A stretch of DNA of 64,000 nt, taken from the IMG/VR virus record IMGVR_UViG_3300049460_000123, positions 1-64,000 of that record. The stretch is one strand, 5' to 3'. The notes under the pieces are model-generated. The model was not told where the DNA came from. It searched no databases and saw only the letters and a list, made by a program, of their open reading frames with translations. A program made the position numbers and the translations under genes. Within the stretch, counting starts at the first letter, position 1. Each line of letters starts with the position of its first letter. Below are positions 27,272-62,220 of this stretch, piece after piece. Source of the stretch: a virus.

Positions 27272-27294
27272 TCAAAACAAGCCGTCATGAACCG

Positions 27295-27310
27295 ATTCTC
27301 GTGTCACGAC
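27295..27310 (-). promoter_or_regulatory. GTCGTGAC-class promoter (lysis)
   Basis: GTCGTGAC-AC-GAGAAT-N6-ATG. Confidence 0.75.
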
Positions 27311-27315
27311 ACCGC

Positions 27316-27579
27316 TTAATCAGCCTCGCTGCCCTCAGTCGGTTGAATGCTGTTGGTGCAGTGATTCGTGTTGAGCCAGTTCAGGACGACGCACATGAGG
27401 CGACAGCCCGCGCACTTGCCGAGCTTCACGTTTTTTCCGAAGACAGACGACAGCCGTTCGCGCGGATCGCCAAAGCGCGCCGAGGGATCGGGGCAAAGGA
27501 GGAGATTCAGGAGAGGACCGGCGACAGCGTTTGCCGCTTGGTCGAGGATGAGGAGAAGATTCCAGAAATACCGAGCCAT
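27316..27579 (-). CDS. Conserved small phage protein
   Basis: LDQAANA...GDPRERLSS...NHC pattern. Confidence 0.7.
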   Translation of the reverse strand: MARYFWNLLLILDQAANAVAGPLLNLLLCPDPSARFGDPRERLSSVFGKNVKLGKCAGCRLMCVVLNWLNTNHCTNSIQPTEGSEAD

Positions 27580-27609
27580 TCGATCCGCCTATGCCGAGGA
27601 CATGGTCAG

Positions 27610-27625
27610 ATGATGTCGTCACGAC
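27610..27625 (-). promoter_or_regulatory. GTCGTGAC-class promoter
   Basis: GTCGTGAC-GA-CATCAT-N6-ATG. Confidence 0.75.
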
Positions 27626-27700
27626 TACCAGGTGCAGTTCTGACTGTTTTCCGCTCCTGTGGCAAAATGCGATCTCCGCCACAGGGATACAGAGGGAAAA

Positions 27701-27892: not shown

Positions 27893-27907
27893 TGTGCAAG
27901 TTGGCGA

Positions 27908-28102: not shown

Positions 28103-28104
28103 TC

Positions 28105-29616: not shown

Positions 29617-29626
29617 CCCTCAGTCC

Positions 29627-30079
29627 TTAGAACGAAATCGTCCACGTACCCGAGAACGTCAGGTCCGTGTCTTTGTTGAGCGGCGCCGTCCGCGTTTTCC
29701 GCGCATACAGCGCGCCACTGGCAGTAAGCAGTCCGAATTCAGAAATAGCCTTTCCGTTCGCCTCGCCAGTGCCGAGCGAGAACGCATACTGGACTTGGTT
29801 CGTCTGCGGATAGGAGTGGCCGTCTACAGCCTTGATATACGCGCTGGTGAGCACCGAGTTGCTGAACACAGGTGCAACCGCGCTCGTGCCGAACCCGATC
29901 TGCGTAACGCTCTGCCCCGTCACGTCGCCGCCGAGCAGCCTGGCGTGCGCCTGTTGCGAGCCGATTACGACCAGGTTCTTTTCTTCGAATACTTCGATGA
30001 GCTTGCCGGCGCGGCGAACTTCCAGGTAGAAGTCGCCGCGCGGCTTACGCTCAAAATCATCCCGTAGGGAAAGGTTCAT
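29627..30079 (-). CDS. Tail-collar/baseplate fibre-attachment protein
   Basis: NLVV, EANGKAISEFGL, YARKT; GGAGG RBS. Confidence 0.75.
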   Translation of the reverse strand: MNLSLRDDFERKPRGDFYLEVRRAGKLIEVFEEKNLVVIGSQQAHARLLGGDVTGQSVTQIGFGTSAVAPVFSNSVLTSAYIKAVDGHSYPQTNQVQYAFSLGTGEANGKAISEFGLLTASGALYARKTRTAPLNKDTDLTFSGTWTISF

Positions 30080-30102
30080 CCACGCCTCCATTCTATTAAT
30101 GG

Positions 30103-30118
30103 AGTGTGCTGTCACGAC
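30103..30118 (-). promoter_or_regulatory. GTCGTGAC-class promoter
   Basis: GTCGTGAC-AG-CACACT. Confidence 0.75.
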
Positions 30119-30122
30119 CGAA

Positions 30123-31226
30123 TTACAAGGACTCCACGACAGTAGTTCCGCCCACTCTGAATATCGAACCGTCGTACCGTCGAACTCCGTTGTAGCGGTA
30201 GTCGTAGACGATCGTGATCGACTCGTCATCCGAGGGAGCCGTCAGCGTATCGGCGAAAGGCGCGAGCGCCGCCGCGCCGGCGAGCGCGTCCGTCGGCGCC
30301 GTGAGCGTGTCAGCGAATGCCATGCTGGCTTGCAGCAGCGTGAATGCATCCGTCGGCGGCGTCAGCGCGTCGGTCAGCGCCGAGCCCGTCAGCGACAGAG
30401 AGCGCATCTGAGTGCCCGCGTCGCGCAGCTTGTTGACCAGATCCTTCACGATCTGCGTGAACGCCGCGACGTCACCGCCGTTGATCAGGTCATAGGCATA
30501 TGTGACGTCAAACAGACCGTACAGAGGCTTGGCCGAGGCGCTATATGTGTGCGAGCCGTCGCGCGTGATAACGCCGTTGTAAAGCGGAAACGTCGGCCCG
30601 TACAGAGTCACGTCTGTCACGGTCGAGACCTGGCCGGTATATGCCTGGATCGCCAGCTCGATCGCGACGTTGTTTCCGCGTGGCCGCAGCACTTCGGCGA
30701 TGATGCGCGGCCCGTAGCTCGCATCCAGCTCGCCCGGCAAGCGCGGCACGCCATAGTAGGAGCCCAGCAAGTCGAGCCACTCGTTGGACGCCGTAGTCGT
30801 GCTCATCTGCTTGAGCATCTCGCCGATCTGCGTTTGCGCCTGCTCGAGCTCGTTCGACTGCGAATCCATGTACGACCACAGCACGTTCGTGTAGCCGTAC
30901 AGGTGATCGCCGTTCGACGTGTTGATGTCGTTCGAACCGTCCATCAGGACGAGCGCCTTCAGCGTCGACAATTGCGACGTGTCCGCATACACGACTGAAT
31001 AGCCGTCCTGCATCGACAGGAACACGACGAGTTGACCGACCGTGTATTGCGAGAGATCGATCGTCAGGTTTTGGCCCGACCCGCCCGTGACCGTCGTACT
31101 CAGGAACCCGTCCGCGATCGCCCATGTCATGCCGCCGTCGTACTTCAGGCGAATGGCGAGGAACTCATGCGGATCCTTGTCGAATACCTTGTGCAGGTAT
31201 CCGAGCAGCTTTTTAGTGAATTTCAT
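30123..31226 (-). CDS. Baseplate wedge protein (P2 gpI-like)
   Basis: TASNEWLDLLGSYYGVPRLPGELDASY. Confidence 0.8.
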   Translation of the reverse strand: MKFTKKLLGYLHKVFDKDPHEFLAIRLKYDGGMTWAIADGFLSTTVTGGSGQNLTIDLSQYTVGQLVVFLSMQDGYSVVYADTSQLSTLKALVLMDGSNDINTSNGDHLYGYTNVLWSYMDSQSNELEQAQTQIGEMLKQMSTTTASNEWLDLLGSYYGVPRLPGELDASYGPRIIAEVLRPRGNNVAIELAIQAYTGQVSTVTDVTLYGPTFPLYNGVITRDGSHTYSASAKPLYGLFDVTYAYDLINGGDVAAFTQIVKDLVNKLRDAGTQMRSLSLTGSALTDALTPPTDAFTLLQASMAFADTLTAPTDALAGAAALAPFADTLTAPSDDESITIVYDYRYNGVRRYDGSIFRVGGTTVVESL

Positions 31227-33294: not shown

Positions 33295-34451
33295 ACGTTC
33301 ACCGTCATGCCGTCATTGGCCGCCTTGACCATCGCCGCGAGCTGAGCGGGCGTGTATGGCGCAAGCACAGGATCCATATGCGCCAGTGCCGACAGGGACA
33401 CCTGCGCGCCCGCCGTCAGCGCGACCGGACCCGGCGCCGCTGCGCTCATCGGTGCGATCGACTCGAATGCATTCTTGTTCGCGAAGGCAGAGATCGGCGA
33501 ACCGCCCGCCGTGCTCGAGCAATTTGAGGAGCCGAACAGCGGCGTATAGTCCTGATACGTGTTCTGTCCAGTCAGCGCGTTTTTCAGCAGACAGCCGATG
33601 TTCGTGAATGCGCTCGCGATCCCCATGATCTGACCCATGAGTTGGCCCGGCAGGTTCATCACCGCCGCGATCGTCTGGAAGACCTTCGTCGCGCACTGGA
33701 CGAGCGTCGTCGCCACACTCATGAGCGCCTTGCCGATGCCAAGCACCGAATTCACCGCGCCCATGACCGCGTTACAGACCTTCGTCACAGCGCCGACGAA
33801 CGCCTTTACCGGCGCGAGAATGTTAGACGTGATCCACGACGAGATGCCGTTCATGAACGTCGTGATCGAGGTGATCGAGTCGATCAGCGATGTCAGGCCG
33901 AGCGCGCCGAGCACTTCGGATGCGATCGACGACGCCGGCGTGCTGTAGGCTCCGAGCTGGTCACTAATGACCGTCATCGGGATTTGATACTGAGCGAGCA
34001 GCGGCCGCGAGCGCGAGCGCCGCAGCACGAATTGCCCCGGAATAACCTGGCTCGTAAACTGGTCGAGCGCGTCGACGTACATGAGCTGGACGAAATCCGG
34101 ATTGCCGCCGCTCTGATAGGCCGCCAGGCGCCGCGCGTGCCACTGGTCGAACACCGTCGACTTGAGATCGATAAGGCGCTGGATACCGTCCTTGGCCGAC
34201 GAGTCGGACCGCCATCCGGTATTGCCCGAGATGTTGATCGTCGCTATGCCCGCCCCGAACTCATCGCCCCAGGCGCCCCCGAGTGTTTGCTGAACCGTCG
34301 TGCGCGATGGATCCGTGCGCGTCATCTCCTCCGGACGCACATACAGCTTCACCTCTGTCGGCGCATCGCTGGCGTTCAGATCGAACAAAAGGAAACTGAT
34401 CGGCGTGTCGCCGGCCTTCTGGGACGAGGGAGGAGTAGCGGATAAGCTCAT
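33291..34451 (-). CDS. Tail tube initiator / baseplate-associated protein
   Basis: VQQTLGGAWGDEFGAGIATINISGNTGW; synteny. Confidence 0.65.
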   Translation of the reverse strand: MSLSATPPSSQKAGDTPISFLLFDLNASDAPTEVKLYVRPEEMTRTDPSRTTVQQTLGGAWGDEFGAGIATINISGNTGWRSDSSAKDGIQRLIDLKSTVFDQWHARRLAAYQSGGNPDFVQLMYVDALDQFTSQVIPGQFVLRRSRSRPLLAQYQIPMTVISDQLGAYSTPASSIASEVLGALGLTSLIDSITSITTFMNGISSWITSNILAPVKAFVGAVTKVCNAVMGAVNSVLGIGKALMSVATTLVQCATKVFQTIAAVMNLPGQLMGQIMGIASAFTNIGCLLKNALTGQNTYQDYTPLFGSSNCSSTAGGSPISAFANKNAFESIAPMSAAAPGPVALTAGAQVSLSALAHMDPVLAPYTPAQLAAMVKAANDGMTVNV

Positions 34452-34457
34452 TACACC

Positions 34458-34473
34458 ATCGTAGTGTCACGAC
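34458..34473 (-). promoter_or_regulatory. GTCGTGAC-class promoter, leaderless
   Basis: GTCGTGAC-AC-TACGAT-N6-ATG(34451). Confidence 0.8.
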
Positions 34474-34496
34474 GCTGAGCCTATTCGCTCTCCTTA

Positions 34497-35372: not shown

Positions 35373-36843
35373 TCGCAAGCCCCGACAATTCAGCGTTATA
35401 GGGACTCTGCACGCCGGCGCCCGCCGTGACACGCTTCACAAAGCCGTTTCCGCGCTCGAGCTTAAGCGTCTGGAAAAGACCTTGATACGGTACATAGTCA
35501 GTATCGACACTCACAACATAGAACGTCGACTCGAACGAACCGCGCACAATGCGCACGTACTTGCCGGGCCGAATCAGTTCGTTCGCGCGAATCCGCGCCA
35601 TGCCGCTTTCGAACAGGACATTGTCCTTGTTCTGCGCGACCAGGATCGCACGCCGATCGTTGATCCAATTCGCCATGCTGGTGTCGCGCGTCCCCTGTTG
35701 ATCCGCCGGCAAGCCGCTATTCATCGTTGTGACGTCGTCGCCGCCCATCTGCGTTTCGGACTCCATCATCCGCAGACCGTAGAACTGTTCGGCGGAATTG
35801 ACGTAGTTGCCGAGATCGACCGTTTGCGCCGTCGCGCCCTGGATCGCGTACTGCTGGCGATAGATATCGCTCACGAGCTCGAATCGCGGCGCGCGCACCC
35901 AGTAATAGTTCGAAACGCCCGCGTCACTGCGCGAAACGCTCAGACTGATCACATCCTTGTCGAGCACATCGATCGTTTCGACGTCCGGCGCGTCTTCCTG
36001 AATCAGGCCGCCATTGATGTCCTTGAACGGCGTAGGCCGGTAGACGACATACTCGCCGTCCTCGCGCGACTCCGTATAGAGCTCGTTGAACGCGCCCACG
36101 TCACCAAAGTACGAGAGTAGGTAATAAATAGTGCCCTGCTGGTTTTGCGCACCGCCCACGTCCACGACGCCATGCACGACCGTGTTATCGATCTTGAACG
36201 CCGTCGGGTTCGATGTGTTCGCCGGCATCAGCGACGTCAGGAACGGATTGACGATTTTGTTCACCACTTCCGACAGGAACGTCGGAGCCGTCATCGACGT
36301 ATCAAAGCCAACGCCGAAGCGCTCGAACAGCTTGAAACTCGAGAGGTAGTTTTCGCCGATCACGTAGCCTGGCAGATACTTGATCTGCATCATTTGCCAG
36401 ATCTTGCCGAAGTCCTGCCCGGCGACCGTGATCGTGCGCTGCGGCTTGCCGTCTGGACTCATCGACTCCGTGCGCGAGATCTCCGACACGAACCCGCGCA
36501 TCAGGATAGGAGGCTTCGGCAGCAGATCCGTCGCGCTGCGCTGATTGTGGCGCATACGGATCTCGATCATATCCATCGGCTCGATCAGTCCGTAAAGCGA
36601 TTCGCGAGAGCCCTTTACAACGTATGGCTTGTCCGGCAGCGTGAGAGAAAATCCGCCGGCCGCCGACCGAACCGACTTCGTCACGCGCAGACTGCCCGAC
36701 TCGCCGATGAACGGCGTCAGGTCGATCGTCTGGTTCGTGTCGAGCACGCGCTGCGATACAGGCGTCTTACCATCGACCGTTTGCCGGCCGATGGTTTTGT
36801 ATAGCGTCAGAGTGAGCGCCGGCGTGTAGATGGAGATGTTCAT
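35365..36843 (-). CDS. Baseplate hub protein
   Basis: MRGFVSEISR...ITVAGQDFGK; synteny after tape measure. Confidence 0.75.
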   Translation of the reverse strand: MNISIYTPALTLTLYKTIGRQTVDGKTPVSQRVLDTNQTIDLTPFIGESGSLRVTKSVRSAAGGFSLTLPDKPYVVKGSRESLYGLIEPMDMIEIRMRHNQRSATDLLPKPPILMRGFVSEISRTESMSPDGKPQRTITVAGQDFGKIWQMMQIKYLPGYVIGENYLSSFKLFERFGVGFDTSMTAPTFLSEVVNKIVNPFLTSLMPANTSNPTAFKIDNTVVHGVVDVGGAQNQQGTIYYLLSYFGDVGAFNELYTESREDGEYVVYRPTPFKDINGGLIQEDAPDVETIDVLDKDVISLSVSRSDAGVSNYYWVRAPRFELVSDIYRQQYAIQGATAQTVDLGNYVNSAEQFYGLRMMESETQMGGDDVTTMNSGLPADQQGTRDTSMANWINDRRAILVAQNKDNVLFESGMARIRANELIRPGKYVRIVRGSFESTFYVVSVDTDYVPYQGLFQTLKLERGNGFVKRVTAGAGVQSPYNAELSGLANG

Positions 36844-36849
36844 GACGAC

Positions 36850-36865
36850 AGAATGCCGTCACGAC
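36850..36865 (-). promoter_or_regulatory. GTCGTGAC-class promoter, leaderless
   Basis: GTCGTGAC-GG-CATTCT-N6-ATG(36843). Confidence 0.8.
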
Positions 36866-36869
36866 ATAC

Positions 36870-43526: not shown

Positions 43527-43532
43527 GAGAGT

Positions 43533-43573
43533 AGTGTGCTGTCACGACCACCCGCGAGACGTGACACTACACT
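43533..43573. promoter_or_regulatory. Back-to-back GTCGTGAC-class promoters (leftward 43533-43548; rightward variant GACGTGAC-AC-TACACT 43558-43573)
   Basis: Both carry the conserved A/T of the -10; the leftward one is leaderless to ATG 43526. Confidence 0.75.
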
Positions 43574-49019: not shown

Positions 49020-49924
49020 GACTTACTCCGTTTGTTGAGTCCTACTTTCAAATCGCGCATAAAGCGCTCCGTGTATTCAGCCGCCTCGTCGAGAGAGAGG
49101 CCGAAATGTCTTGCGCAGTGCTTGACGATGTCGCGCGCGTTCGGCTTGGCTAGAAGCCCGCTGCGCATATCACCGGCGAGCCTGTCGCGGAAGTCGAAAT
49201 AGTTGGCGGGCTTGCCCATGTCGAGCGATTGCTTACCGAGTGCGGCGCCGCCAGTGAGCGATGCGCTATCGGTGCCGTAGCCGGCCTCGAGCGCCTTCGC
49301 GAAATCCAGTCCGCTCGCGCCCCAGCACTTCGCCAGCGCGTCGAAAGGGATCGTCTGAGCCGTCGGCAGGTTCTGATTCACGGGCGTGCGACTCAGCGCG
49401 ACGTTCGTCCAGCGGACCTTTTCAACGACTCCAATCTTGTTTTTCGTCTCCGGATCGATCTGCACGCTCTTTGCCAGCACGGCGCCGCCAACGGACGGAT
49501 ACCAGCGCGCCGGCGGATTGAGATTCGTCATCGAGTCCCAAACCATATTTGCGTTCTTAGCCAGATCCGTATCGCCGCTATAGAGCTGCGACTTGACGAA
49601 CGTGCGGCGCCCCTCGATCCGAACCTGCGTCGGGCGGCCGATCTCGTACAACTCGTGATTCGGGAGTCCGACGTAACCCGTGCGCGGGTTCGGTTTGCCG
49701 AGCAGGCTGTAGTGATCCAGATCGACGTTGCCGAACTTGAGGTAGTGGTCAGCGCTATCCTCGAGCGCTTTAGCCATTACCCGTTCGTTCTGCTGATCGA
49801 CCTTTTCATTGCTCGCCTCGAAATAGATGAAGCGATCTCCGCCTTCTTCGGCAGGGATTGCTTTGAACATCGACTCGATCTTTAGAAAATCGGGGATGTC
49901 TGCGAGGAGTTGTGTGTCGTCCAT
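49016..49924 (-). CDS. Prohead protease
   Basis: EASNEKVDQQNE, DLDH, PSVGG, NVALSRTPVN. Confidence 0.85.
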   Translation of the reverse strand: MDDTQLLADIPDFLKIESMFKAIPAEEGGDRFIYFEASNEKVDQQNERVMAKALEDSADHYLKFGNVDLDHYSLLGKPNPRTGYVGLPNHELYEIGRPTQVRIEGRRTFVKSQLYSGDTDLAKNANMVWDSMTNLNPPARWYPSVGGAVLAKSVQIDPETKNKIGVVEKVRWTNVALSRTPVNQNLPTAQTIPFDALAKCWGASGLDFAKALEAGYGTDSASLTGGAALGKQSLDMGKPANYFDFRDRLAGDMRSGLLAKPNARDIVKHCARHFGLSLDEAAEYTERFMRDLKVGLNKRSKS

Positions 49925-49931
49925 GAGATAA

Positions 49932-49947
49932 ATTCTCGTGTCACGAC
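49932..49947 (-). promoter_or_regulatory. GTCGTGAC-class promoter, leaderless (head operon)
   Basis: GTCGTGAC-AC-GAGAAT-N7-ATG(49924). Confidence 0.8.
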
Positions 49948-49988
49948 TTCAACCCACCGCATCACTTGATCGAAAAAAAGCAAGTCGG

Positions 49989-53300: not shown

Positions 53301-54889
53301 TGGCGGATCGCATCCTCGACGCCAGTCTTGCCGAGCGACACCTCGAGCTTGTCCTTTTTGCCCTGCTTCAGCGCGACCGACAGCGCCGCGTTCGCCTCCA
53401 TCTCGCCGAGCGCCTGCCCGAGAATCTTTTGCGCCTCGCCGATCGCCTCGCGCCGCGTGCCGTTGAGCGCCTGCGCAGTTTGCATGTCCGCGCCGCTCGC
53501 CGCATCGCTGAGCTCGATCTCCTTCGCCGACTTCATCAGATCGCGCGCGCGGCCCATCGCGTCAGCGCTCGCCGTCATGTAGTGGTGCATGTGGAAATCC
53601 TGCACGCCCGCCTGAATCCGCTCGACGTCGTCCGGCATGTCGGTGTGGATCCGGCGCGCGAGCACCTGCGCAGCGCCGGCGATGCCGAGCACGTCGACGA
53701 CACTGCGATCGACCAACGCGGATCCGCTCACGGCCAGCGCCAGCGAATTCACGCTGTTGTACGCTCCCACGCCGATATGCTTGCCGAGCGTCTCGGACGG
53801 ATCGCCGCCGGCGACCTTGCCGACTTCGGACAGGAACGTCAGGGTTTGCGCCGTGCGCAAGTCCTGCTCGATATCCTTCGCGATTTTCTCGTCAGCGTCC
53901 GGATCTGCCGTGTACTCGAGCACGTAGGCTTTGGGCTCGACGGTCGACTTGTCGATCTCCGCCTTTGCCTGCTTCGCCTGCTCCTGGACCTTTTTGAGCG
54001 CCTTTTGCGCGCGCAGCAACTCGACCGCCTTTTGAGCGCTCGTCAGGGTTGCGTCCGGCACTGGCGCGACCGGCTCGCGAATGTTTTTGAGCTCCTCTCG
54101 CACCATGCGCGCAGTGTCGCCGCGCTTGATCGCCGCCTCGCGCTGGCTATCCGTCATCGTCGACAGTTTCGCCGCGCGCGCCTGATCTACCTCCGTGCGC
54201 AGTTCCTTTTCCGTCAGACCGGCTTTCTCGGCGCGGCCCTTGTAATCCTTCGCGTAGCCGAGTCCGTCGGACACCTGCGGCACCGGGTTCAAATCCTGAA
54301 CCGTGAGTGTGTCCGGATCATCCGTGTGCACCGGAATCTCGCCGATGCCGGCGTCCATGCGCGCCGCGCTATCCGTCACCAGCCGTTCACGCTGTAGCCC
54401 AACGGCGTCAGTCGCGCGTTTCAGGATCTCGCGATGATGCTGTGCCTCGAGCTTCTTGCGGGCCGCCGGAGACAGATCCTTATGCGCCTCCGCATCGAAC
54501 TCCGTTTCCTTCTTGTCCCAGCCGAGCGTGCTCGCGACCGTGTCGACGAACTCCTTCTCCGCTTTCTTCCGCTGCACCTGGATCGCCTCATGAGCCTTTT
54601 GCTTCGACTCATGGATCCCGGCCTCCTTGTCGGCCTTGACCTTGTCTTTGCGCGCCTTGGCCGCGTCAGCCTTCTTCGCCGCCGCTTCGGCCTTGTATTC
54701 CGACTCGTGCTTGACCGCGCGCAGGCGCAGGTGATTCATCGAGCCGCCAGCGCCGCCGATCACCGTCGAGCTTCCATCTGGATTCGGCTGGATCAGGATA
54801 GGCTGGCCCGTGCCGTCGCCGTGCGAGTGCACCGTGATCCATCTCGCGCCAGCGGGAATGGATGCTTTGAGGAGGAGAATTTTGCGCAT
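50339..54889 (-). CDS. Large polyvalent protein with C-terminal SNF2/SF2 helicase (DarB-helicase-like)
   Basis: GAGSGKT, DEAH, GMNLQ, QRNARIHR; start re-called to 54889 (MRKILLLKAS). Confidence 0.85.
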   Translation of the reverse strand: MRKILLLKASIPAGARWITVHSHGDGTGQPILIQPNPDGSSTVIGGAGGSMNHLRLRAVKHESEYKAEAAAKKADAAKARKDKVKADKEAGIHESKQKAHEAIQVQRKKAEKEFVDTVASTLGWDKKETEFDAEAHKDLSPAARKKLEAQHHREILKRATDAVGLQRERLVTDSAARMDAGIGEIPVHTDDPDTLTVQDLNPVPQVSDGLGYAKDYKGRAEKAGLTEKELRTEVDQARAAKLSTMTDSQREAAIKRGDTARMVREELKNIREPVAPVPDATLTSAQKAVELLRAQKALKKVQEQAKQAKAEIDKSTVEPKAYVLEYTADPDADEKIAKDIEQDLRTAQTLTFLSEVGKVAGGDPSETLGKHIGVGAYNSVNSLALAVSGSALVDRSVVDVLGIAGAAQVLARRIHTDMPDDVERIQAGVQDFHMHHYMTASADAMGRARDLMKSAKEIELSDAASGADMQTAQALNGTRREAIGEAQKILGQALGEMEANAALSVALKQGKKDKLEVSLGKTGVEDAIRQARAIGLQRGDYQIENVGGDTFLTVHGAGMDRLAKPIDRADIEQVKRNLDIIAGGQDEDDWLPLGVANRPDLAMNVQPGVAPRIAEPFAPGEDLEQSLRDYIGGRTADGDAPGDIVADIQSGDFFQQVGAASAEQYRTALDAVAPLKGEDGNMRRAEELGDSFDKYADEFVEARHGATRSPMNRQKFTVDQKSVEALHRALAETPEGTAAYKQIGDLTNQDQAALREHFYKNVAKESPEAGAMRQDLERLTANEPEKETTDMFGDSTENPEWTDWKSQRDELAGKINASSLTWGKYLETMGGNAKAYEAVQDLIKSKVSRSFAEAHNKLNPGNPLKIGRAVVRNNLNHLDATDHAARDARRARERELTDSLRERSGGRYASGSVSDKLDAARDQREAFEQSQMGFFAGDEPDMFGGAEEPKERALAGDERHTIGHEAERQLAGMMGIVGKNFKPGKPTKMWNVSMNGKYANQQRAIKMLAENKRLGLAFGAGSGKTNVMLGGFAHLHGLGKVKRSVMLVPSVVQGQFSGEALRLLEPGKFKWHIEPGASQESRIAAYKDPDTHICVMTHQSFRGDMVHLGATHAGIDENAMTEQLGKMTPDDRQAWIKGVMDKEGINFDASFIDEAHDTLNRAGKENSTLANVTDALSAHTPYYTYASGESGFKNDTSEVYSMLQKLDPKRYQDRAAFMRRYGADTMASKDALKREMARYTFPAQITPDVEASRKRETVDLTPAQRTAMDTLSSNLAAARIARMRGKVDVAAIKAISPSSFEGVPEADHEKIAEALQKSIGIMKSSAMQRIIDTHPDNAKVNRIADLVQARGNKQGVVFARNRAAVEAIRERLEKQGKRVVTITGSDTAKEKDRKRSMFNPEKGEAQADILIASDAGAVGMNLQSGEYLIQHDIPATAKTHAQRNARIHRLGQTRNVELIDMQANHPEETRARDRLEKKYGMRDLMSSSLEGLDDTGVAYFLKQRQAAQQSDTHDLF

Positions 54890-54896
54890 GACCATA

Positions 54897-54912
54897 ATTT
54901 TCTGGTCACGAC
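54897..54912 (-). promoter_or_regulatory. GTCGTGAC-class promoter, leaderless
   Basis: GTCGTGAC-CA-GAAAAT-N7-ATG(54889). Confidence 0.8.
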
Positions 54913-54929
54913 TTCCGGCCCGGCGCAGT

Positions 54930-55183
54930 GATACCTAGATACCACGCCGATACCATGCATGGTATCGGCTGGAATCCTTGCCTGATAAGGCTTTCAGCCC
55001 CCTAGATACTAAAATACCTATTTTTTAAGATAGATATATAGATAGAGAGGGGGGGATGTATAGGGGGGGATATGTGTATATATATCTGTATATGTCTTGC
55101 CGCAGGAATGGTATCTTGGTAAATTTGGTATCTTGCCTTTAGAATCAATTACTTAGCCGATACCACCGATACCATATGGTAAC
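54930..55183. repeat. Iteron-like origin candidate B, homologous to 2223-2612
   Basis: GATACCATGCATGGTATC, TTTCAGCCCCCTAGATAC, TA/G-tract core, IHF site AATCAATTACTTA at 55143-55155. Confidence 0.75.
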
Positions 55184-55192
55184 CATAGGCGT

Positions 55193-55212
55193 AAAAAAAA
55201 CGCCCGGAGGCG
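55193..55212 (-). terminator. Intrinsic terminator
   Basis: CGCC-TCCG-GGCG-T8 on minus strand. Confidence 0.65.
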
Positions 55213-55258
55213 CCTTTTAGGGGGGGTACCCCCCCCCACTTTGACAGGGGGGGAGGGG

Positions 55259-58200
55259 TCAGACTAGCTCGAGTGCCTTGGCGAGGGTGTCCGCCTTCTT
55301 CACCGCCGCCACGAACCGATCAAATGCCGCATTGATCTTTACCCGCTCGTCACCCTCCGGGTAAGGTTTCCACTGCACACCCGTCAGCGGATCGACATGG
55401 AATCGATTATCGGCGAGCGACGAAAGGTAGTCGTTCCGGCGGCCCTTGTCGGATAGACGATCCTCGACCCAGGACTGAAACGCGCGCGCGGCCATCTCGT
55501 GCGTAAGTTGCCAGTACTCTTTCGAACCCGTGTCGAGCTTGCTGGCCTCGAACGCGAACGACGACATGCCTTTGCCCTGCTTCACCTCGACGGCGCCGCC
55601 TTCCGGGTTGCCGCCGAAGTGCGCCGCCGCGATCAGGCGCCAGATCTCGCGCGTGCTCTTGCGCTTCTTCGTCAGCGTCTTATCGTCCGGATAGACGGCG
55701 TCGATCGCCTTGAACGCGTCGTGCACCGTGCCGGCGTCGCGGATCGAGCGCGCGACCGCGTTCGGATACGTGCCGTTGAGGTTGCGCTGTGCCATTTTCA
55801 CATCCGATGCCGTGTACGAGATCAGCTCCGTGTGTTGGTGCGTCCCGTCGAGCATCGCGCTACGCAGTGCGATCGTTGCGTCACGCAGCTCGCCCGGCGG
55901 CAGAAGGTGCGGATTCTCCGTGATGAAGTCGTCTTGCCCGGCCGCGCCCATCCCCTCCGCTTCCTTCGCCATGTTGTCGAGCGCATGGAACCATTCGTGA
56001 GCCAGCGATCCGCCGCCGCCCATCTTGGTAAGGTTGATAACGCGCTGGATCGGCTCGTAGTGGGCTTTGGCCGCCCCACCTCCTGCCGCGCCATTGCCGC
56101 GCGCACCGAACGCCATAGCGAGGCGCCCATTGAGCGACACGTGCGCATCGTCGGCGCCCATCAGATCCGCCAGGTCAGCGAACGCGCCGGCCGTATGCTC
56201 CGTGTGGAACTTGGCCGACGCCACGTCGCGCAGCACCCAGTTACCCGACTGGACGTCGCGCAGGCCGAACATGTCTTTGAGCGCCATCGTCGAATCAGGC
56301 ACGACGGACCGGCCGCCGACGCGCTCGAACGAGTCCGCGACCTTGAGCTGGAACCGTGCCGACTCTTTCGAGATGCGCGGCGCCCGCTTCTGCTCTTTCT
56401 CCATCCAGTCCCAACCGATTTTGCCGACCTTCGCCGCCGCGACGTGATTGGCGAACGCGTCCGAGCCCTTGTACGACCGGTACTTGATCACGCCGACGAA
56501 ACGATCGCCCATCAGGTTCCACGCGCGATGCAGCGGATTTTCGGTCTGATTGCGGACCTTCGCCATCAACTTGAGCACCTCGCGCTTGCGGCCGAGCTCG
56601 CTGCGCGCGTCGTCGATCTCGTCACGGCGCGGTTTGTTGCCCTGAAGCGTGTCGCCCCAAAGTTTCGTTGCGGCCGCATCGACTTTCTCGAGATCGGCGA
56701 GCTTCTCGTCCAACTCCGGCTTTGGCGCCCACCCGCGACGCTTGCGATTCTCGACCGCTTCCCGCGCGCGATACAACTCGACGCGGGTTTTCTGCATCTC
56801 GTTATAGAGCGCAGTGTTGCCGGCATCGATCTCCCGGCTTTCATTCGCCAACGCCAGCGATGCATTGCCGTGCACCTGGTATTGCTCCGACTCCTCAGCC
56901 GTCAGAATGGCGCCCTCGAACTCCTCTCGCAGATTGTCGAGCACGCCCGTCACTTCGGCCGGCGTCTTGCATCCCTCGAGGCGATCGCGTAACGATTGCA
57001 GGCCGATCGCGTAATCCTGGCGAGCGCTCGGATTGTCAGCGCTGGGCTCTTGCCCGATAGCCGCATAGATGCGATCGACGAGGAACCCGGCGCCCGGCTC
57101 CATGCCGCCGGCGCGCAGCGCATCCCAATCGACGGTGCCGAACAGGTTCGACTTCGTGATCAGGCTTTTCGCCTCGCGCGGGTTCTGCTCGAGCGCGTCC
57201 CAGTCGATCGCCGTCGCGAACACCCGGGCGCCCTCTTTCTTGGCCCGCGTGATCACCTCGAGCGCCGCGCGTTCCTTACGGGATCCGCCAATGTGCCCGG
57301 TATCAGCATAGCGATAATTTTCACTGGACGGACGGTCGACCTCGACCGGCTCCTCGCGCGCCGCGACGCGTTCGGCGATCTTCGAGACTAGATCCTTCGC
57401 TTTCTCGCTATGCGGATCGCGCGCCAGCTCGTCGGCGAGATCCTCGCGGTCTTCGGCGAGCTCGACGTCGGGATTGGCCTGCGTAGCTTCGGCGGCCGGC
57501 GCGGGCGCCACGTCCACCGGATTCCCGTGCGACGACTTCGCCGGATCCTTTACGATCTCAACCGGAACCATCTGGCCGCCATGCATCACTACACGGCCGT
57601 CCGGATAGTTGCCCTTGTAATCTCGATGGACCTTTTTCCATTCGTCCATCGTCATCCGGATCACCTTCTTAGGTGCCTTCGCAGCTTCGTCGGCAGCGCG
57701 CCGTGCATCATCGGCAGCTTGCGCCTGCTTACGCATGCGATCCGCCGTCAACCGATCCTGGAACTGACGATCAACCTCGACGATCTTTTGACGCAACCGA
57801 TCGACGGCAGATGCGTATTGCATCAGCTTGAAGTGATTGACCTGCTTTTCGATATCCTCCAGTAACCGACTTGCGTCGATGCCGTTGCCAGCGTCGAGAC
57901 GCTCCTCAAGCGTAGCAATACCCTTCTCGATATCCGCACGCGGCGCCGCGTATTCGTCGTAAGCCTGCTTGTAGATATAGCCGAAGTCATACCAGACGCC
58001 GTCGACCTTGGCCTCGCGCTTGTCGTGCGAGATACCATCGATCTTGCCGGCGCGCATCGGGAAAGTGCCGGCCACCTTGACCGACTCGCCGCGCTCGAAT
58101 TTCACAGGCGACAGCTTGTCGTCTATCACACGCTGCACAGTGAATGCATTCCGCGAGTTGTCATCCTCCTCGTTCGCACGATGCCAACGACCGTCGCGCA

Positions 58201-60241
58201 GCACATACTCGACGCCGTGCTCCGTCTTCGTATCGCCGTCTTTCGGCCCTTGCTCGACCGGCGCGGCCACAGCCTCCGCCGGTTTCGTTACCACCAGCAA
58301 GCGCGCGTTGGCGCCGGTTTGTGACGGCAGATCCGAACCCTTGAACGTGTTTTCCGGCAGCTTCTCGACGTCGGCGCCGTGCTCATCGAGCCACGAACGG
58401 AACGCCGTCGCGCGCTGATCGGATCCGAAGAAAACACCCTCGCCGGCGATCGCGACCAGCTTGCCGCCCGGCTTGAGCATGTCGTATGCGCGCATGATAT
58501 GCGCCGCGTCCTTGCGATCGGAGAACGGCGGATTCATGATCACCGCGTCGTACTGCTTGCCCGGCTCGAACGTGTCGAAGTCGTGCGCCGCGATGTTGTG
58601 CCCCTTCGCGCTCAGCACATTGCGCAGCGTGTCGGATATCTCGATCGCGTCGACCGTTGCGCCCGCATCGCGCGCCGCGTCCGCGAGGTGCCCATTGCCG
58701 GCTGACGGCTCGAGCACAGACATACCCGGCTTGACGCCCGCCATCTCCGCCATCTTGGCCGCGAGCGGCTTCGGAGTCGGGAAGAAATCGATGCCGACCT
58801 TTTTGCCGACCAGCGCGCGTTCAGCCGCCTTGATCGGATCCTCTTTTTTCACGCCGTCACGGAACACCAGGTATTCGGCGAGCGCGAGGCGCAACTCGTG
58901 ATCATTCGTGATACCGATGCGCGCCAGGCGGTCGACCTTCTTGATCTGCTCGTCATTCCACCAGCCGAGACCCGATCGAATGTCTTTCTCATCAAGGTAT
59001 TTTTTAAGATCTTTGACCATCGCGCCATCCGGGCCGCTCGACGCGCGCAGGCGTTCGATCAGCGGCTTGGCCCCGCGCTTGCCCTGCAGCTTCTCGATCA
59101 GACGCGGCTTGTCGGCGCCACCAGTGCCCCACGACGGCCGGTAGATTTTCGCGTTGCGGATATCGTCCGGCGTCGGCGCGCGGCCCTTGGCTCGTTGCTG
59201 ATCGACATAGGACAGGTCACGATCCGTCGCATACATTGCATTGCGCACGGACTCATCAAGCGATTCGACAGCCGCGCGCGTGCTGATGCCCTTCAGATGC
59301 TTCGCCTCGCCCGCCTCGATCGCGTCCGCAAGATTGATCATCGTGCCGGCGATCGCGAGCCGCTTGCTTGCATCCGCCTCCGCCCCGGCCGCCATGCGTG
59401 CACGGCGCGCGGTATTGGCGAGGCGATCGCGGCCGAGATTCTCGTTAGCCTGATCTGCCAACTTCGCACCAGCCGCGCGCAGCTTGGCCGCCTGCTCTTT
59501 CGACTTGTCGACGACGGGCGCCGGCGCCACTTCATCAGTCTTCTCAGCCGGCTTGGTGAACATGACGCGCGGAGCGGCCGCCGGCGTGGCGCCGTCGAGA
59601 TGCTTCTCGCGAATGAACCAGCCGCCGTCCTTTTTGAACGTGTACGCGTCGATCGCCTTCGCCTGGTCGTGCGTCAGATCCGTGCGCACGACGCCGCGCA
59701 GGACTTTGCCCTTGCCGGTCGTGTGCTCGACGATATCGTGCGCGGACGGAGCCGGCTTTTCCTCCGCCACCTGCGTCTCCGCCTCGACCGGCTCTTTCTC
59801 TGCCGGCGCGGCCGCTTCCTTCGCAGCTTCGATTACCGGCTCCGCTTCTTTCGCCGGCATGGGTTCCGGTTCTGGCGTGCGCAGATCGCCGACATGCATG
59901 CCCAGCCGCTCGACGACGGACGCCGCTGTAATGTCATCGATATGCGCCATCGCGTCGATCAGCTTCGCGCGCTGCTCCGGCCGCATCTCCATCAGCGTCG
60001 AGCGCATGCGTGCCGGGCCGCCGTGCTTGGCGAGGAACTTGTCCAGCTTGGGAGACTGCTTAGCGGCCTTTGGCGCTTCAGGAGCGGGGCCGAACAAGTG
60101 CCCCTGCTCGTGAGGCTTCATCGCAACGTGCGCAGTGCGCATGTGCGGTTTGACGTACGTGCCGTCCTTCCGGTACGAGCCGGCGACGTGCACCGGCATA
60201 CCGAACAGCGGGAGCTGCGACTTGCGAAGAATGAAGATCAT
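55259..60241 (-). CDS. Large polyvalent protein: N6-adenine methyltransferase plus HExxH/LPD1-like domain (DarA/DarB-like)
   Basis: FFPTP, LEPSAGNG, NPPF; LAHEWFHALD; YW...EMAARAF...YPEGDER. Confidence 0.85.
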   Translation of the reverse strand: MIFILRKSQLPLFGMPVHVAGSYRKDGTYVKPHMRTAHVAMKPHEQGHLFGPAPEAPKAAKQSPKLDKFLAKHGGPARMRSTLMEMRPEQRAKLIDAMAHIDDITAASVVERLGMHVGDLRTPEPEPMPAKEAEPVIEAAKEAAAPAEKEPVEAETQVAEEKPAPSAHDIVEHTTGKGKVLRGVVRTDLTHDQAKAIDAYTFKKDGGWFIREKHLDGATPAAAPRVMFTKPAEKTDEVAPAPVVDKSKEQAAKLRAAGAKLADQANENLGRDRLANTARRARMAAGAEADASKRLAIAGTMINLADAIEAGEAKHLKGISTRAAVESLDESVRNAMYATDRDLSYVDQQRAKGRAPTPDDIRNAKIYRPSWGTGGADKPRLIEKLQGKRGAKPLIERLRASSGPDGAMVKDLKKYLDEKDIRSGLGWWNDEQIKKVDRLARIGITNDHELRLALAEYLVFRDGVKKEDPIKAAERALVGKKVGIDFFPTPKPLAAKMAEMAGVKPGMSVLEPSAGNGHLADAARDAGATVDAIEISDTLRNVLSAKGHNIAAHDFDTFEPGKQYDAVIMNPPFSDRKDAAHIMRAYDMLKPGGKLVAIAGEGVFFGSDQRATAFRSWLDEHGADVEKLPENTFKGSDLPSQTGANARLLVVTKPAEAVAAPVEQGPKDGDTKTEHGVEYVLRDGRWHRANEEDDNSRNAFTVQRVIDDKLSPVKFERGESVKVAGTFPMRAGKIDGISHDKREAKVDGVWYDFGYIYKQAYDEYAAPRADIEKGIATLEERLDAGNGIDASRLLEDIEKQVNHFKLMQYASAVDRLRQKIVEVDRQFQDRLTADRMRKQAQAADDARRAADEAAKAPKKVIRMTMDEWKKVHRDYKGNYPDGRVVMHGGQMVPVEIVKDPAKSSHGNPVDVAPAPAAEATQANPDVELAEDREDLADELARDPHSEKAKDLVSKIAERVAAREEPVEVDRPSSENYRYADTGHIGGSRKERAALEVITRAKKEGARVFATAIDWDALEQNPREAKSLITKSNLFGTVDWDALRAGGMEPGAGFLVDRIYAAIGQEPSADNPSARQDYAIGLQSLRDRLEGCKTPAEVTGVLDNLREEFEGAILTAEESEQYQVHGNASLALANESREIDAGNTALYNEMQKTRVELYRAREAVENRKRRGWAPKPELDEKLADLEKVDAAATKLWGDTLQGNKPRRDEIDDARSELGRKREVLKLMAKVRNQTENPLHRAWNLMGDRFVGVIKYRSYKGSDAFANHVAAAKVGKIGWDWMEKEQKRAPRISKESARFQLKVADSFERVGGRSVVPDSTMALKDMFGLRDVQSGNWVLRDVASAKFHTEHTAGAFADLADLMGADDAHVSLNGRLAMAFGARGNGAAGGGAAKAHYEPIQRVINLTKMGGGGSLAHEWFHALDNMAKEAEGMGAAGQDDFITENPHLLPPGELRDATIALRSAMLDGTHQHTELISYTASDVKMAQRNLNGTYPNAVARSIRDAGTVHDAFKAIDAVYPDDKTLTKKRKSTREIWRLIAAAHFGGNPEGGAVEVKQGKGMSSFAFEASKLDTGSKEYWQLTHEMAARAFQSWVEDRLSDKGRRNDYLSSLADNRFHVDPLTGVQWKPYPEGDERVKINAAFDRFVAAVKKADTLAKALELV

Positions 60242-60267
60242 GGGGAGCCTATAAGGAGCATCCCCAT

Positions 60268-60283
60268 ATGATCAAGTCACGAC
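60268..60283 (-). promoter_or_regulatory. GTCGTGAC-class promoter with 7-codon leader ORF
   Basis: GTCGTGAC-TT-GATCAT-N6-ATG(60261); MLLIGSP* overlaps ATG 60241. Confidence 0.75.
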
Positions 60284-61051
60284 CAAAGCCTTATAGAATA
60301 GGACGCGCAGCGATTTGATCATCGCCGGCTTTTCCTTAGTAGCCCGAGCTTTTTTTATGAATTCCGCGACCGGCATTGCAACGATGCCACCGAAGAATCG
60401 CGGATCGTCGTAATGCGCGAGGTATGCCTTTTTTGCCGCTTCCATCGAGGCAAATCCGAGGAAACACTTGTCCTCGTCGTACTTGCTCCAATCCTTTCGC
60501 GTCATCTGGCGAACGATGTAGACCTCCGGCGCCGACTCGTCCGGACCCATGTAGACGTCGACCGGATCCCCATCGACGCCCTCAGTGCCGGCGATCTCGC
60601 CATAGGCGTACTCGAACACGGTCCGCCACTTCGCGCCGGTCTCGTCGACGCCCTCGCGTACGGTTCCCGCCGGATTCTCGATATTGATGTCGAGCCCGTT
60701 CCACTTCATGCGCAGTTTTTTGTAGTTGCCGGCCGCCGCCTGCGCGGGAGTCGGTTTTTTCCAGCCGTCAGCGCGCTCAGACTTGACCATCCATAAATCG
60801 CCGTCCTGGCGTGCAGTGCCGCGCAGATCATCCCATGAGAACGACTGCTGGCTGTCGGCAAACTGCACCGTGATATAGGCACCGTCGACCGTCGCCTTGA
60901 CGTTCGATATCTTGCCCGTCGCCGGACCTTTGTCCGTATGGCGATCGCTCTCGAATTCGATCCGTTGGCCGATATCGGGCCATCCATCCGGCGCACGCCG
61001 TTTTCGCAGCGCCTCGAGGCGCTTCGCGTAATCAGCTTTAATCAGCAGCAT
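60272..61051 (-). CDS. Inorganic pyrophosphatase-domain polyvalent protein
   Basis: AGNYKK, IENPAG, YGEIAGTEGVDGDPVDVY, DEDKCFLGF. Confidence 0.8.
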   Translation of the reverse strand: MLLIKADYAKRLEALRKRRAPDGWPDIGQRIEFESDRHTDKGPATGKISNVKATVDGAYITVQFADSQQSFSWDDLRGTARQDGDLWMVKSERADGWKKPTPAQAAAGNYKKLRMKWNGLDINIENPAGTVREGVDETGAKWRTVFEYAYGEIAGTEGVDGDPVDVYMGPDESAPEVYIVRQMTRKDWSKYDEDKCFLGFASMEAAKKAYLAHYDDPRFFGGIVAMPVAEFIKKARATKEKPAMIKSLRVLFYKALVVT

Positions 61052-62198
61052 TCGAATTTCCCAGTACGCTACGTAGGTAATCGCCGAACGCCTTGTCATC
61101 GCCCGGCTCGTCTTGAATGGTCGGAACCCATCGGCCCCGGCAATGCGGATGCTGCGCGCCGGCGGCAATCCAGTACATCTCCTCCGGCTCGCGATGCACG
61201 AGGATGGTCCCGACGCGCTTACGCGGCGCATTGGATCGCCCCATGTTCGTTTTGCCCGGCCAAATCTGCGTCATGCCGTCCTTGTCAGGCGCATCCGGCG
61301 AGACAACCTCGACGATCGTGCCATCGATCTTTCGGCACCACGAACACGCATTGCGGTATTGCTCGACGCGCCTCAGCTTGGATCCGACTGGCATGCTCGA
61401 GACATAGCCCTGATTCTGGTTCTCAGTCGTCTCCGTCTCAGCGATGCGCCGCCAGTCGCGATTGAGCGTCGCAAACTCGTCGTGCAACGTCGTTTGTAAC
61501 GAGTGGCGCGGGCCGGGCGTGCCGAGGAACGTCTGTCCCGTGTGCTCGAGCACCACCTGGCGCATGCGATGCCGCGCGTTATCGGCGAGGCGCTGGACGT
61601 TCTCCACGCCGCGCACGCGTGCATAGTCGAGAATGATCGACTGCACCGGCGACATGGTGAACGCCGCGCGCGCCGCGCTCACGGTCGACGGCAGCGCCTC
61701 GAGCAGCGTATCAGCCTGCTTGGCCGTCAGGCTTTCCATGTTCGCCTGCACGCGCCCCATGAACGTCGAGCGCACGGCGAGCCATTCCGCTTCGGTGCGC
61801 ATGTCACTGGCGGGCAAATAGCGTTGCGCCAGGTAGTCGACGACCATCATCCAGTCGTCGAGCGTGAATTCCGCCGGCGGAAGCGATTCGAGGTAGAGCT
61901 TGACGAGCGACAGCTCGGACGCCGACCAGCGCTGCATGTACCCATCCGGCCGCGCCACGCGCGAGCCTGCGTGATGCTTCTCGCCGGCGAGCCACTGCTC
62001 GAGCTCCTTGCGGAACCCGTCGAGGCGCATCAGTCCGCGACGCGTGAACAACTCCACTAGGCGGCGCACGAACGGATTTTCGTGCTCCGACCAGATCGAA
62101 TCGTCATCGTCATGGCTGTGGATCGCCTTGTAGATGGTGTTTAGGGCGCGGTCTGACTGTTGCTCCGTCAATTCGCCGATATCGAGTAGTAGGGTCAT
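61038..62198 (-). CDS. Head morphogenesis protein (MuF/SPP1 gp7-like)
   Basis: RDWRRIAETE, ACSWC, HPHCRGRW. Confidence 0.85.
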   Translation of the reverse strand: MTLLLDIGELTEQQSDRALNTIYKAIHSHDDDDSIWSEHENPFVRRLVELFTRRGLMRLDGFRKELEQWLAGEKHHAGSRVARPDGYMQRWSASELSLVKLYLESLPPAEFTLDDWMMVVDYLAQRYLPASDMRTEAEWLAVRSTFMGRVQANMESLTAKQADTLLEALPSTVSAARAAFTMSPVQSIILDYARVRGVENVQRLADNARHRMRQVVLEHTGQTFLGTPGPRHSLQTTLHDEFATLNRDWRRIAETETTENQNQGYVSSMPVGSKLRRVEQYRNACSWCRKIDGTIVEVVSPDAPDKDGMTQIWPGKTNMGRSNAPRKRVGTILVHREPEEMYWIAAGAQHPHCRGRWVPTIQDEPGDDKAFGDYLRSVLGNSNAAD

Positions 62199-62204
62199 TT
62201 CATC

Positions 62205-62220
62205 ATCCTGCCGTCACGAC
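62205..62220 (-). promoter_or_regulatory. GTCGTGAC-class promoter, leaderless
   Basis: GTCGTGAC-GG-CAGGAT-N6-ATG(62198). Confidence 0.8.

Follow-up and report, generated by a model that had tools for sequence, protein, structure and literature searches.

Hairpins predicted to span transcription start sites in a putative promoter class conserved across a family of myoviruses

The virus record IMGVR_UViG_3300049460_000123 of IMG/VR is a phage genome of 93,508 bp, flanked by direct terminal repeats and recovered from a rhizosphere metagenome assembly; the listed runs that contain it are five rhizosphere metagenome DNA runs. Here, we examine its initial 64 kb (positions 1 to 64,000, hereafter the window), whose 27–62 kb part consists of structural genes on the minus strand, and we focus on a motif built around the octamer GTCGTGAC. 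A preliminary description of the window had proposed that this motif serves at once as a promoter, a leaderless start and a silencer of read-through RNA, the motif folding back onto the AUG whenever transcription begins further upstream. The analysis below supports a promoter class of this kind and places the strongest predicted hairpins at sister sites whose starts are led by a Shine-Dalgarno sequence (SD), with a smaller and uneven contribution at the leaderless starts.

The phage belongs to a group of myoviruses with genomes of ~82–98 kb. Bordetella phage PHB04 shares 67% amino-acid identity with it in the 1518-amino-acid (aa) helicase-domain protein and 79% in the major capsid protein, and further members of the group are Aeromonas ST4, Pseudomonas Jeremy and Dolphis, Yersinia fHe-Yen8-01 (Yen8) and Escherichia ECML-606-1 (ECML). 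The cultured members of the family infect Bordetella, Pseudomonas putida, Aeromonas, Yersinia and E. coli, while the Thermus phages Lalka and phiMa are more distant kin. Our comparison set consists of 15 complete relatives from IMG/VR (taken from among the matches listed), six sequenced isolates and this genome. Motif counts are based on these 22 genomes, and folding tests on 21 non-redundant related genomes.

Within the window, the motif has the layout GTCGTGAC-N2-nAnnAT-N6-ATG at 10 or 11 sites. Genome-wide, the exact octamer occurs in 19 minus-strand and 2 plus-strand copies (21 versus ~3 expected), and the hexamer that follows is conserved at A2 (18/21 sites), A5 (14/21) and T6 (17/21). 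At 12 sites in this genome, an ATG lies exactly 14 or 15 nt past the octamer (N14 and N15 sites) and hence 6–7 nt past the hexamer, the usual start position of RNA polymerase. Eight of these ATGs open long open reading frames (ORFs) that lack an SD, and the remaining four open short ORFs (Table 1). The pattern GTCGTGAY-N3-A-N3-T is found at 7–15 sites in each of the 15 IMG/VR relatives, all but one of them on a single strand, whereas the reversed pattern yields 0 sites in the same genomes; the six isolate relatives share the motif, with fewer exact copies. Of the 273 motif sites of the 22 genomes, 100 have the ATG at N14 and a further 30 at N15 (130/273), and at the 124 leaderless sites of the 21 non-redundant genomes, 116 ATGs lead into ORFs of 50 aa or more.

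The family consensus reads GTCGTGAY, 2 nt, a -10-like hexamer nAnnAT, 6 nt and +1, with C at -1 and A at +1, and the spacers of leaderless sites contain a promoter and no SD. As in sigma-70-type promoters, the hexamer carries A2 and T6, and the predicted +1 lies ~7 nt downstream. Motif sites stand at the heads of gene blocks, with one divergent pair. On these sequence grounds, the motif is well founded as a putative strand-specific promoter class conserved across the phage family, with the ATG at the expected +1 as placed by geometry. At about half of the sites, we infer that +1 is the A of the ATG, such that the mRNA would be leaderless. A scan of 26–45 kb for the sigma-70 promoter consensus and for terminators gave nothing above shuffles, and a full-text literature search for the octamer returned unrelated primer matches only.

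Table 1. Motif sites (named by the 5' end of the octamer) and other features of the window. The minimum free energy (MFE, kcal/mol) is that of the 34–35-nt RNA from octamer-3 to ATG+6, with z against dinucleotide shuffles.
Feature	Span	Strand	Octamer	Hexamer	ATG	Description	MFE	z
Site 36865	36835..36868	-	36865-36858	CATTCT	36843	putative promoter, predicted leaderless start and strongest hairpin	-16.1	-4.65
Site 54912	54881..54915	-	54912-54905	GAAAAT	54889 (N15)	putative promoter, predicted leaderless start of 1516-aa helicase-domain protein	-12.3	-4.29
Site 27310	27280..27313	-			27288 (N14)	putative promoter; ATG opens 15-codon ORF only (site and mini-ORF region 27271-27310); main gene start at 27271, behind GGGGAAGGAA	-14.3	-2.87
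Site 34473	34443..34476	-	34473-34466	TACGAT	34451	putative promoter, predicted leaderless start of 386-aa baseplate-region gene	-10.4	-2.05
Site 49947	49916..49950	-	49947-49940	GAGAAT	49924 (N15)	putative promoter, predicted leaderless start of 302-aa gene	-9.9	-1.94
Site 43548	43518..43551	-	43548-43541	CACACT	43526	putative promoter, predicted leaderless start of 277-aa gene	-7.9	-1.22
Site 62220	62190..62223	-	62220-62213		62198	putative promoter, predicted leaderless start of 386-aa gene	-4.5	-0.02
Site 60283	60238..60286	-			60261	putative promoter; ATG at predicted +1 opens 7-codon ORF whose TGA overlaps ATG 60241 of 1660-aa gene (site and mini-ORF region 60238-60283)		-0.51
Site 27625	27595..27628	-			27603 (N14)	motif site; ATG opens 4-codon ORF (site and mini-ORF region 27601-27625); no octamer-AUG hairpin		+0.98
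Site 1996	1965..1999	-	1996-1989	poor	N15	motif site; ATG opens 45-codon ORF		-0.30
Site 30118	30070..30126	-	30118-30111	CACACT	30079	SD-led sister site; 17-nt leader, SD GGAGG
Site 9336	9328..9390	+	9336-9343		9380	SD-led sister site; predicted +1 at 9358
Single-mismatch octamer	43558	+				divergent, beside site 43548
Long helix	34430..34516	-				~18 bp, around site 34473
Cys-rich pair	1146..1954	-				two adjacent small proteins behind site 1996
Cys-rich protein 1	1430..1954	-				174 aa
Cys-rich protein 2	1146..1436	-				96 aa
Helix-turn-helix (HTH) ORF	8458..9174	+				238 aa
Giant proteins	50339..60241	-				two proteins within head module

The potential of the octamer to pair with the start codon is in part built into the motif. 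The octamer is near-palindromic, its own RNA complement with one G·U being GUCAUGAC, and its CGUG is complementary, again with one G·U, to C-AUG at -1 to +3. As a result, CGU can pair with AUG at every N14 site: the 14-nt spacer always sets C-20, G-19 and U-18 opposite G+3, U+2 and A+1, and G-17 opposite the usual C-1 (76/96 sites). In the 34–35-nt RNAs, the octamer region pairs with the AUG at 8 of the 12 exact-motif N14/N15 sites of this genome. In 69-nt read-through contexts, from which pairing probabilities and opening energies of individual sites were taken, the pairing persists at 6/11 sites (82663, 65237, 36865, 54912, 27310 and 49947) and is lost at 43548 and 34473.

To this shared core, 5–6 of the 11 sites add site-specific pairs, yielding hairpins of -10 to -16 kcal/mol. 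When only the spacer is shuffled, the observed mean of -9.65 kcal/mol compares with -5.95 ± 0.59 (0/500 shuffles as stable), and 5/11 sites are individually significant at p<0.05; sites 62220, 60283, 27625 and 1996 do not differ from dinucleotide shuffles. All six hairpins quoted in the preliminary description are present on the minus strand, and the comparison with spacer-shuffled controls, which it had proposed as a check, bears out an excess stability in the mean over the sites. Two of its statements, on complementarity between promoter and start at most sites and on continued pairing of the variable spacer bases, apply to about half of this genome's sites and not to all of them.

The strongest hairpin, at site 36865, has a 5' arm GUCGUGACGGCA, a UUC loop and a 3' arm UGUCGUCAUGA(A) (0/200 shuffles as stable), with an AUG–octamer pairing probability of 1.00 and an opening energy of 14.7 kcal/mol. 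None of the six isolate relatives has this promoter; their orthologous gene is SD-led. Site 54912 forms GUCGUGACCA/UGGUCAUG, with an AUG–octamer pairing probability of 0.79, and site 27310 forms GUCGUGAC...(G)UUCAUGAC. At site 49947, the arms GUCGU..CA.GAGA and UCUC.UG.GACGAC give an AUG pairing probability of 0.62 and an opening energy of 10.5 kcal/mol. Site 34473 combines a local hairpin, ACACUA-cga-UGGUGU, with octamer/AUGA pairing. Around it, the end of the upstream gene (-43 to -22) can form a long helix with +4 to +22, codons 2–8 of the 386-aa gene; this helix encloses the whole promoter (69-nt MFE -31.0 kcal/mol, opening 9.6). The hairpin at site 43548 is weak and contains one mismatch, its octamer–AUG pairing falling to 0.06 in the 69-nt context, and all six isolate relatives share the leaderless arrangement of this site. 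At site 62220, the fold leaves the AUG outside any hairpin (AUG–octamer probability 0.00). Site 60283 likewise has no octamer–AUG hairpin, its 69-nt fold pairing GGGGAUG with a downstream CCCCAU. At site 1996, the conserved 174-aa gene begins 34 nt past the octamer, behind GAGGG.

At three of the sites in Table 1 (60283, 27625 and 27310), the ATG at the predicted +1 opens only a mini-ORF, and an ATG-TTT-TGA at +1 is retained ahead of an SD-led orthologue in Yen8 (3726) and ECML (34491). We dropped an argument from such ATGs kept without a gene start (the three mini-ORFs here and 8 of ~145 non-gene sites family-wide), the excess over chance being marginal. Yen8 and ECML, whose hosts are enterobacterial, have two leaderless motif sites each, and several orthologues of leaderless genes (the portal gene and those matching 62220 and 34473) are SD-led in these phages. 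This distribution suggests that leaderless starts are replaced depending on the host.

Across the family, we compared the leaderless sites with column permutations (keeping column composition), chimeras (keeping each half intact) and within-genome chimeras. Cognate halves are more stable than chimeric ones (-8.98 vs -8.15 kcal/mol, z -5.0; z -4.2 without this genome). The pairs in excess, -14:-4, -13:-5 and -12:-6, share the register of one continuous hairpin centred on -9, and nearly continuous helices occur at 13/96 sites versus 8.6 expected (p=0.034). When the sites are split at +1, the MFE is -20.8 versus -19.15 (z -7.4), and opening of -2 to +6 costs 6.12 versus 5.28 kcal/mol (z 5.0); ordinary SD-led starts display no difference between native and chimeric sequences. 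For +1 to +6, opening would cost 4.38 kcal/mol on read-through RNA, versus 3.17 at generic starts (p=1e-5) and 0.96 on the primary transcript, so folding predicts, in agreement with the preliminary description, that read-through RNA buries the start to a greater extent than at generic starts. The mean opening energy per genome reaches ~6.2 kcal/mol in this genome, Jeremy and G013. Among the inner pairs, the asymmetry between G·U and A·C is as in the permutations (G·U 52 vs 47.3, A·C 23 vs 24.5). We read the excess pairing at leaderless sites as a weak effect, real but small and carried by a minority of sites.

A much larger effect is seen at the SD-led sister sites, which comprise 66 motif sites in the 21 genomes that lack an ATG at +1 and have an SD-led start within 100 nt. 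Read-through RNA, taken here as the leader plus 30 nt upstream of +1, has an MFE of -21.9 kcal/mol versus -17.3 ± 0.3 for chimeras. Opening the ribosome-binding site (RBS) would cost 10.38 kcal/mol on this RNA, versus 4.74 on the primary transcript, 7.15 ± 0.24 on chimeras (z 13.4) and 7.4 at generic starts. With within-genome chimeras, the difference is +3.12 kcal/mol (p=9e-6); the pseudo-transcription-start-site (pseudo-TSS) control on ordinary genes gives z values of -0.3 and 3.4. At least 4 bp span +1 at 63/66 sites, and in 54 of them the 3' arm covers the SD to the AUG.

The pairing partner of the RBS peaks at -6 to -1 and drops past +1, so the discriminator, which directly precedes the predicted +1, carries an anti-SD. 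Examples of anti-SD/SD pairs are CCUCCG/CGGAGG in PHB04 and UCUCCUGA/UCAGGAGA in ECML. In this genome, sites 30118, 9336, 90202 and 85332 have such hairpins. At 30118, the AAUGGAG of the SD finds its partner in CUCCAUU, the discriminator sequence ahead of the predicted +1. At 9336, the -10 hexamer and discriminator are overlapped by GCAUAGCC, which forms a helix with GGCUAUGC, directly next to the ATG (MFE -27.5 kcal/mol in a 90-nt context). For the promoter family as a whole, a lock of the type known from phage T4 is thus well supported in silico, most strongly at the SD-led sites.

Read-through into these genes is plausible. Co-directional ORFs end within 200 nt upstream of 96/124 leaderless and 55/66 SD-led sites, and terminator-like elements lie upstream of few sites. 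U tracts of the kind that complete an intrinsic terminator are missing downstream of the window's hairpins. An overlap of terminator and promoter occurs in PHB04 (minus strand, near 90389): the canonical intrinsic terminator AGACUGCGG...CCGCAGUCU, then U6, draws its 5' arm from the -10 hexamer plus discriminator of the holin/endolysin cassette promoter. Because of this overlap, upstream transcripts would terminate there, whereas transcripts from the cassette's own promoter would not.

Taken together, these predictions can be arranged into a mechanism. On RNA started further upstream, the CGUG of the octamer would face C-AUG in a weak helix of 4–6 bp, and at 5–6 of the 11 sites in this genome, the added site-specific complementarity would turn this contact into a stable hairpin burying the AUG. 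RNA started at +1 would lack the 5' arm: if +1 is 7 nt past the hexamer, as geometry places it, the 5' arm ends at -1. Where the gene is SD-led, a hairpin spanning the predicted TSS would arise from the discriminator anti-SD. Such hairpins would tie translation of the promoter-proximal gene to transcripts initiated at that gene's own promoter. At leaderless sites, the hairpin would be an auxiliary and unevenly distributed layer, because a 5'-terminal AUG already depends on the 5' end.

We see about an even chance that TSS-spanning hairpins do couple translation of the first gene to its own promoter in this way, with an auxiliary role at leaderless sites. The most coherent reading of the two site types is that selection for hairpins is strong where the SD would be usable on read-through RNA and weak where the start is leaderless. 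A broader proposal can be put forward only tentatively, namely, that every late promoter of the family is fused to a device tying translation of the first gene to the local start, either an AUG placed at +1 and thus leaderless or an SD that a discriminator anti-SD covers. The two would be interchangeable, and the octamer would have been co-opted as an anti-AUG arm at some leaderless sites. With respect to the preliminary description, the putative promoter class and the predicted leaderless start stand, the octamer as a reused AUG lock stands in part, and the T4-like principle applies strongly to the SD-led sisters and as a partial, auxiliary layer to the leaderless sites.

Several observations weigh against this mechanism, many of them concerning the leaderless starts. 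With within-genome chimeras, the effect there is +0.74 kcal/mol, with 68/124 sites positive (p=0.06). The probability that the AUG is paired is 0.69 family-wide and 0.69 in column-permuted or chimeric controls, while in this genome it is 0.63 versus 0.76. As pairing is unchanged against controls that keep composition, the octamer–AUG contact is a property of the motif and its start context and by itself gives no evidence of selection. The pair A-16:-2, which adjoins the core, forms in 27 of the 96 N14 sites. Covariation across homologous phages, another check named in the preliminary description, is found in the fixed register at -13:-5 (p=0.012) and is otherwise weak (-14:-4, p=0.06), with none in the outer pairs or in shifted registers of these 96 sites. 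Orthologous sites do not retain the strong hairpins (in PHB04, those corresponding to 54912 and 34473 make no pairs with their AUG), and the genome means of opening energy in PHB04 (2.4 kcal/mol) and in Yen8 and ECML (1.3–2.0) are below the generic 3.2. The helices are 87–88% Watson-Crick and barely more stable in sense than in antisense (p=0.046 and 0.095), and this weak asymmetry leaves an RNA-level, sense-strand origin unproven. Hairpin strength is no lower where a terminator-like element lies upstream, as judged with a crude classifier and small n. At site 27310, the buried AUG belongs to the 15-codon ORF and not to the start of the main gene. In addition, ribosomes would be expected to make little use of an internal AUG that lacks an SD, which would make the lock largely redundant at leaderless sites. 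Finally, read-through would come mostly from other late promoters, so that a temporal rationale of the T4 type is not evident.

At the leaderless sites, the hairpins could also be a by-product of promoter and start context: the complementarity of CGTG to CATG would be accidental, the usual pyrimidine at -1 and A at +1 would add to it, the few long hairpins would be neutral or due to chance, and nothing would be locked, since an internal AUG lacking an SD is hardly translated in any case. The unchanged AUG pairing in both kinds of control, the within-genome p value and the lack of conservation at orthologous sites all fit this explanation. So do C-1 (76/96 sites) and a purine at +4 (69/96), which fall within start-site and second-codon preferences (in part a matter of general knowledge), and PHB04 uses GGC-ATG, which breaks the helix at -16:-2. 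By our own estimate, ~8% of random 8-mers would hold a 4-mer able to pair with CAUG. A by-product does not account, however, for cognate halves that are more stable than chimeras at z -5 to -7 with no such effect at ordinary gene starts, for excess pairs that fall into one continuous register, for the spacer shuffle in this genome (0/500) or for SD-led sisters with a large and specific effect in the same geometry relative to +1. We consider it rather unlikely. Acting at the transcript level, TSS-spanning hairpins could instead be terminators, pause sites or 3'-end stabilisers that insulate late units, the very short intergenic regions causing them to mask the SD or AUG only incidentally. Upstream stop codons do lie close to the octamer (median gap of only 11–22 nt), and a canonical hairpin and U-tract with its 5' arm over the hexamer and discriminator occurs at PHB04 90389, Yen8 30137, ECML 7559, G003 24163 and G014 54638. 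Yet at least 5 U in the 8 nt after the outer arm are found in just 1/63 spanning helices, an inner terminator is visible by eye in ~6/66, no leaderless hairpin in the window precedes a U tract, and the 3' arm tracks the SD or AUG (54/63) rather than a fixed distance from the promoter, all of which makes such a role improbable.

Two further explanations concern the nature of the motif itself. It could be part of a DNA-level inverted repeat, with a second GTCRYGAC-like box at the start (the perfect palindrome GTCATGAC) bound by a dimeric regulator, or a hairpin or cruciform promoter of the N4 type. GTCGTGAC and GTCATGAC differ at a single base, the centres of the two boxes are separated by 22 bp, the hairpin centre lies at ~-9, and the Watson-Crick helices with their weak strand asymmetry suit a DNA structure as well as an RNA one. 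We nevertheless hold this to be very improbable. Beyond the core, the complementary parts vary among sites, a feature that binding by a sequence-specific protein would leave unexplained, the geometry of leadered sites shifts with the SD and AUG rather than staying fixed to the promoter, and the full GTCATGAC box is rare, with -16:-2 pairing in 27/96. About half of the sites lack a stem, and the stems present vary in length, versus the conserved 5–7-bp stem and 3-nt loop of the N4 type, and the failure to detect a T7/N4-type RNA polymerase domain points the same way, weakly, as this family is silent in all control genomes. The least credible alternative is that the motif is an RNA element present on all transcripts, such as a translational operator in the 5' untranslated region, and not a promoter. 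The ability of the octamer to pair with the start region would be expected of such an element. It is countered by the -10-like hexamer with conserved A2/T6 and fixed spacing, the ATG exactly 7 nt past the hexamer without an SD, the position of sites at the heads of gene blocks with one divergent pair, and the same architecture in distantly related Thermus phages with mapped TSSs.

As for the reader of the putative promoter, no Sigma70_r2 domain was detected in the phage, and a search for a T7-type RNA polymerase (PF00940) found none, a weak negative given that the same search is silent in every control genome. Host RNA polymerase together with a phage-encoded specificity factor is therefore the likely reader. 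No factor recognising the upstream octamer was identified among the phage proteins beyond candidates. The HTH ORF just upstream of plus-strand site 9336 resembles sigma-70 region 4_2 or a winged HTH at borderline level in Pfam; with 0 homologues in 20 relatives, it was rejected. The two adjacent Cys-rich proteins behind site 1996 are the only short non-structural ORFs of unassigned function with homologues in all 20 relatives. The larger contains several CxxC pairs and is conserved in 20/20 relatives, and the smaller has a weak match to the FlhC zinc region, while Pfam, PHROGs, PDB and ESM Atlas give no family name for either. By sequence, these two proteins are candidates for an octamer-specific transcription factor.

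Two giant proteins are also encoded within the head module. The first (1660 aa) combines methyltransferase and LPD1 polyvalent-protein domains, and the second (1516–1518 aa) ends in a C-terminal SF2 helicase and has homologues in only 12/20 relatives.

The motif brings to light an uncharacterised promoter class with predicted leaderless mRNAs in Proteobacteria. Leaderless mRNAs are uncommon in Beta- and Gammaproteobacteria, the classic proteobacterial case being lambda cI transcribed from PRM. If the proposed coupling is true, a compact promoter can carry post-transcriptional insulation, and genes in long, terminator-poor late operons would be translated from their own promoter only. This would be a simple means to set protein ratios or to silence late proteins on stray read-through RNA.

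Among known arrangements, intrinsic terminators that overlap promoters resemble a minority of the family's sites, where a hairpin and U tract can be formed by read-through RNA only. They differ from the leaderless hairpins, which have no U tract and whose 3' arms cover translation signals. A closer parallel is found in the Thermus Lalka phages, whose late promoters are densely placed, with few terminators; their TSSs have been mapped, most of their mRNAs are leaderless, and host polymerase and a phage factor have been proposed to act at their late promoters (bioRxiv 10.64898/2026.04.20.719267). As here, Lalka27a and YS40 place the A of the start codon 6 nt after the -10 element, and the distinct late -10 with an extra conserved upstream base suggests a phage factor redirecting host RNA polymerase; structural-module and helicase homology of the Lalka phages with our phage amounts to ~33% identity. 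In contrast, the upstream element here is an octamer at -22 to -15 rather than a C at -25, the -10 is nAnnAT rather than TAGGGT, the isolate relatives infect Beta- and Gammaproteobacteria, and leaderless sites are few (2 each) in the members with enterobacterial hosts, where SD-led orthologues take their place.

The preliminary description regarded the arrangement as its best candidate for an undescribed system, a status that does not stand, as it follows the logic of T4 e, soc, 49 and I-TevI (PMC3014915). In these genes, and in Aeh1 mobE, longer transcripts started upstream fold the SD and/or AUG into a helix, and the T4 late promoter lies within the DNA encoding the 5' strand; RNA made from this promoter therefore has no 5' arm and is translated (PMC3014915). 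This layout is closely matched by the family's SD-led sites, with their discriminator anti-SD. The leaderless sites depart from it in having no SD, in using the conserved octamer as the 5' arm and in a small average effect known from folding prediction, and read-through would come mainly from other late promoters. Finally, in T4 the arrangement is known from individual genes, where it silences early or middle read-through, whereas here the hairpins concern most promoters of one class in at least 21 genomes. If true, this would turn a handful of T4 cases into a rule for a phage family whose cultured members make direct testing possible, and if the coupling holds, promoter choice and translatability would be linked regulon-wide and maintained in evolution, beyond the single-gene cases of T4.

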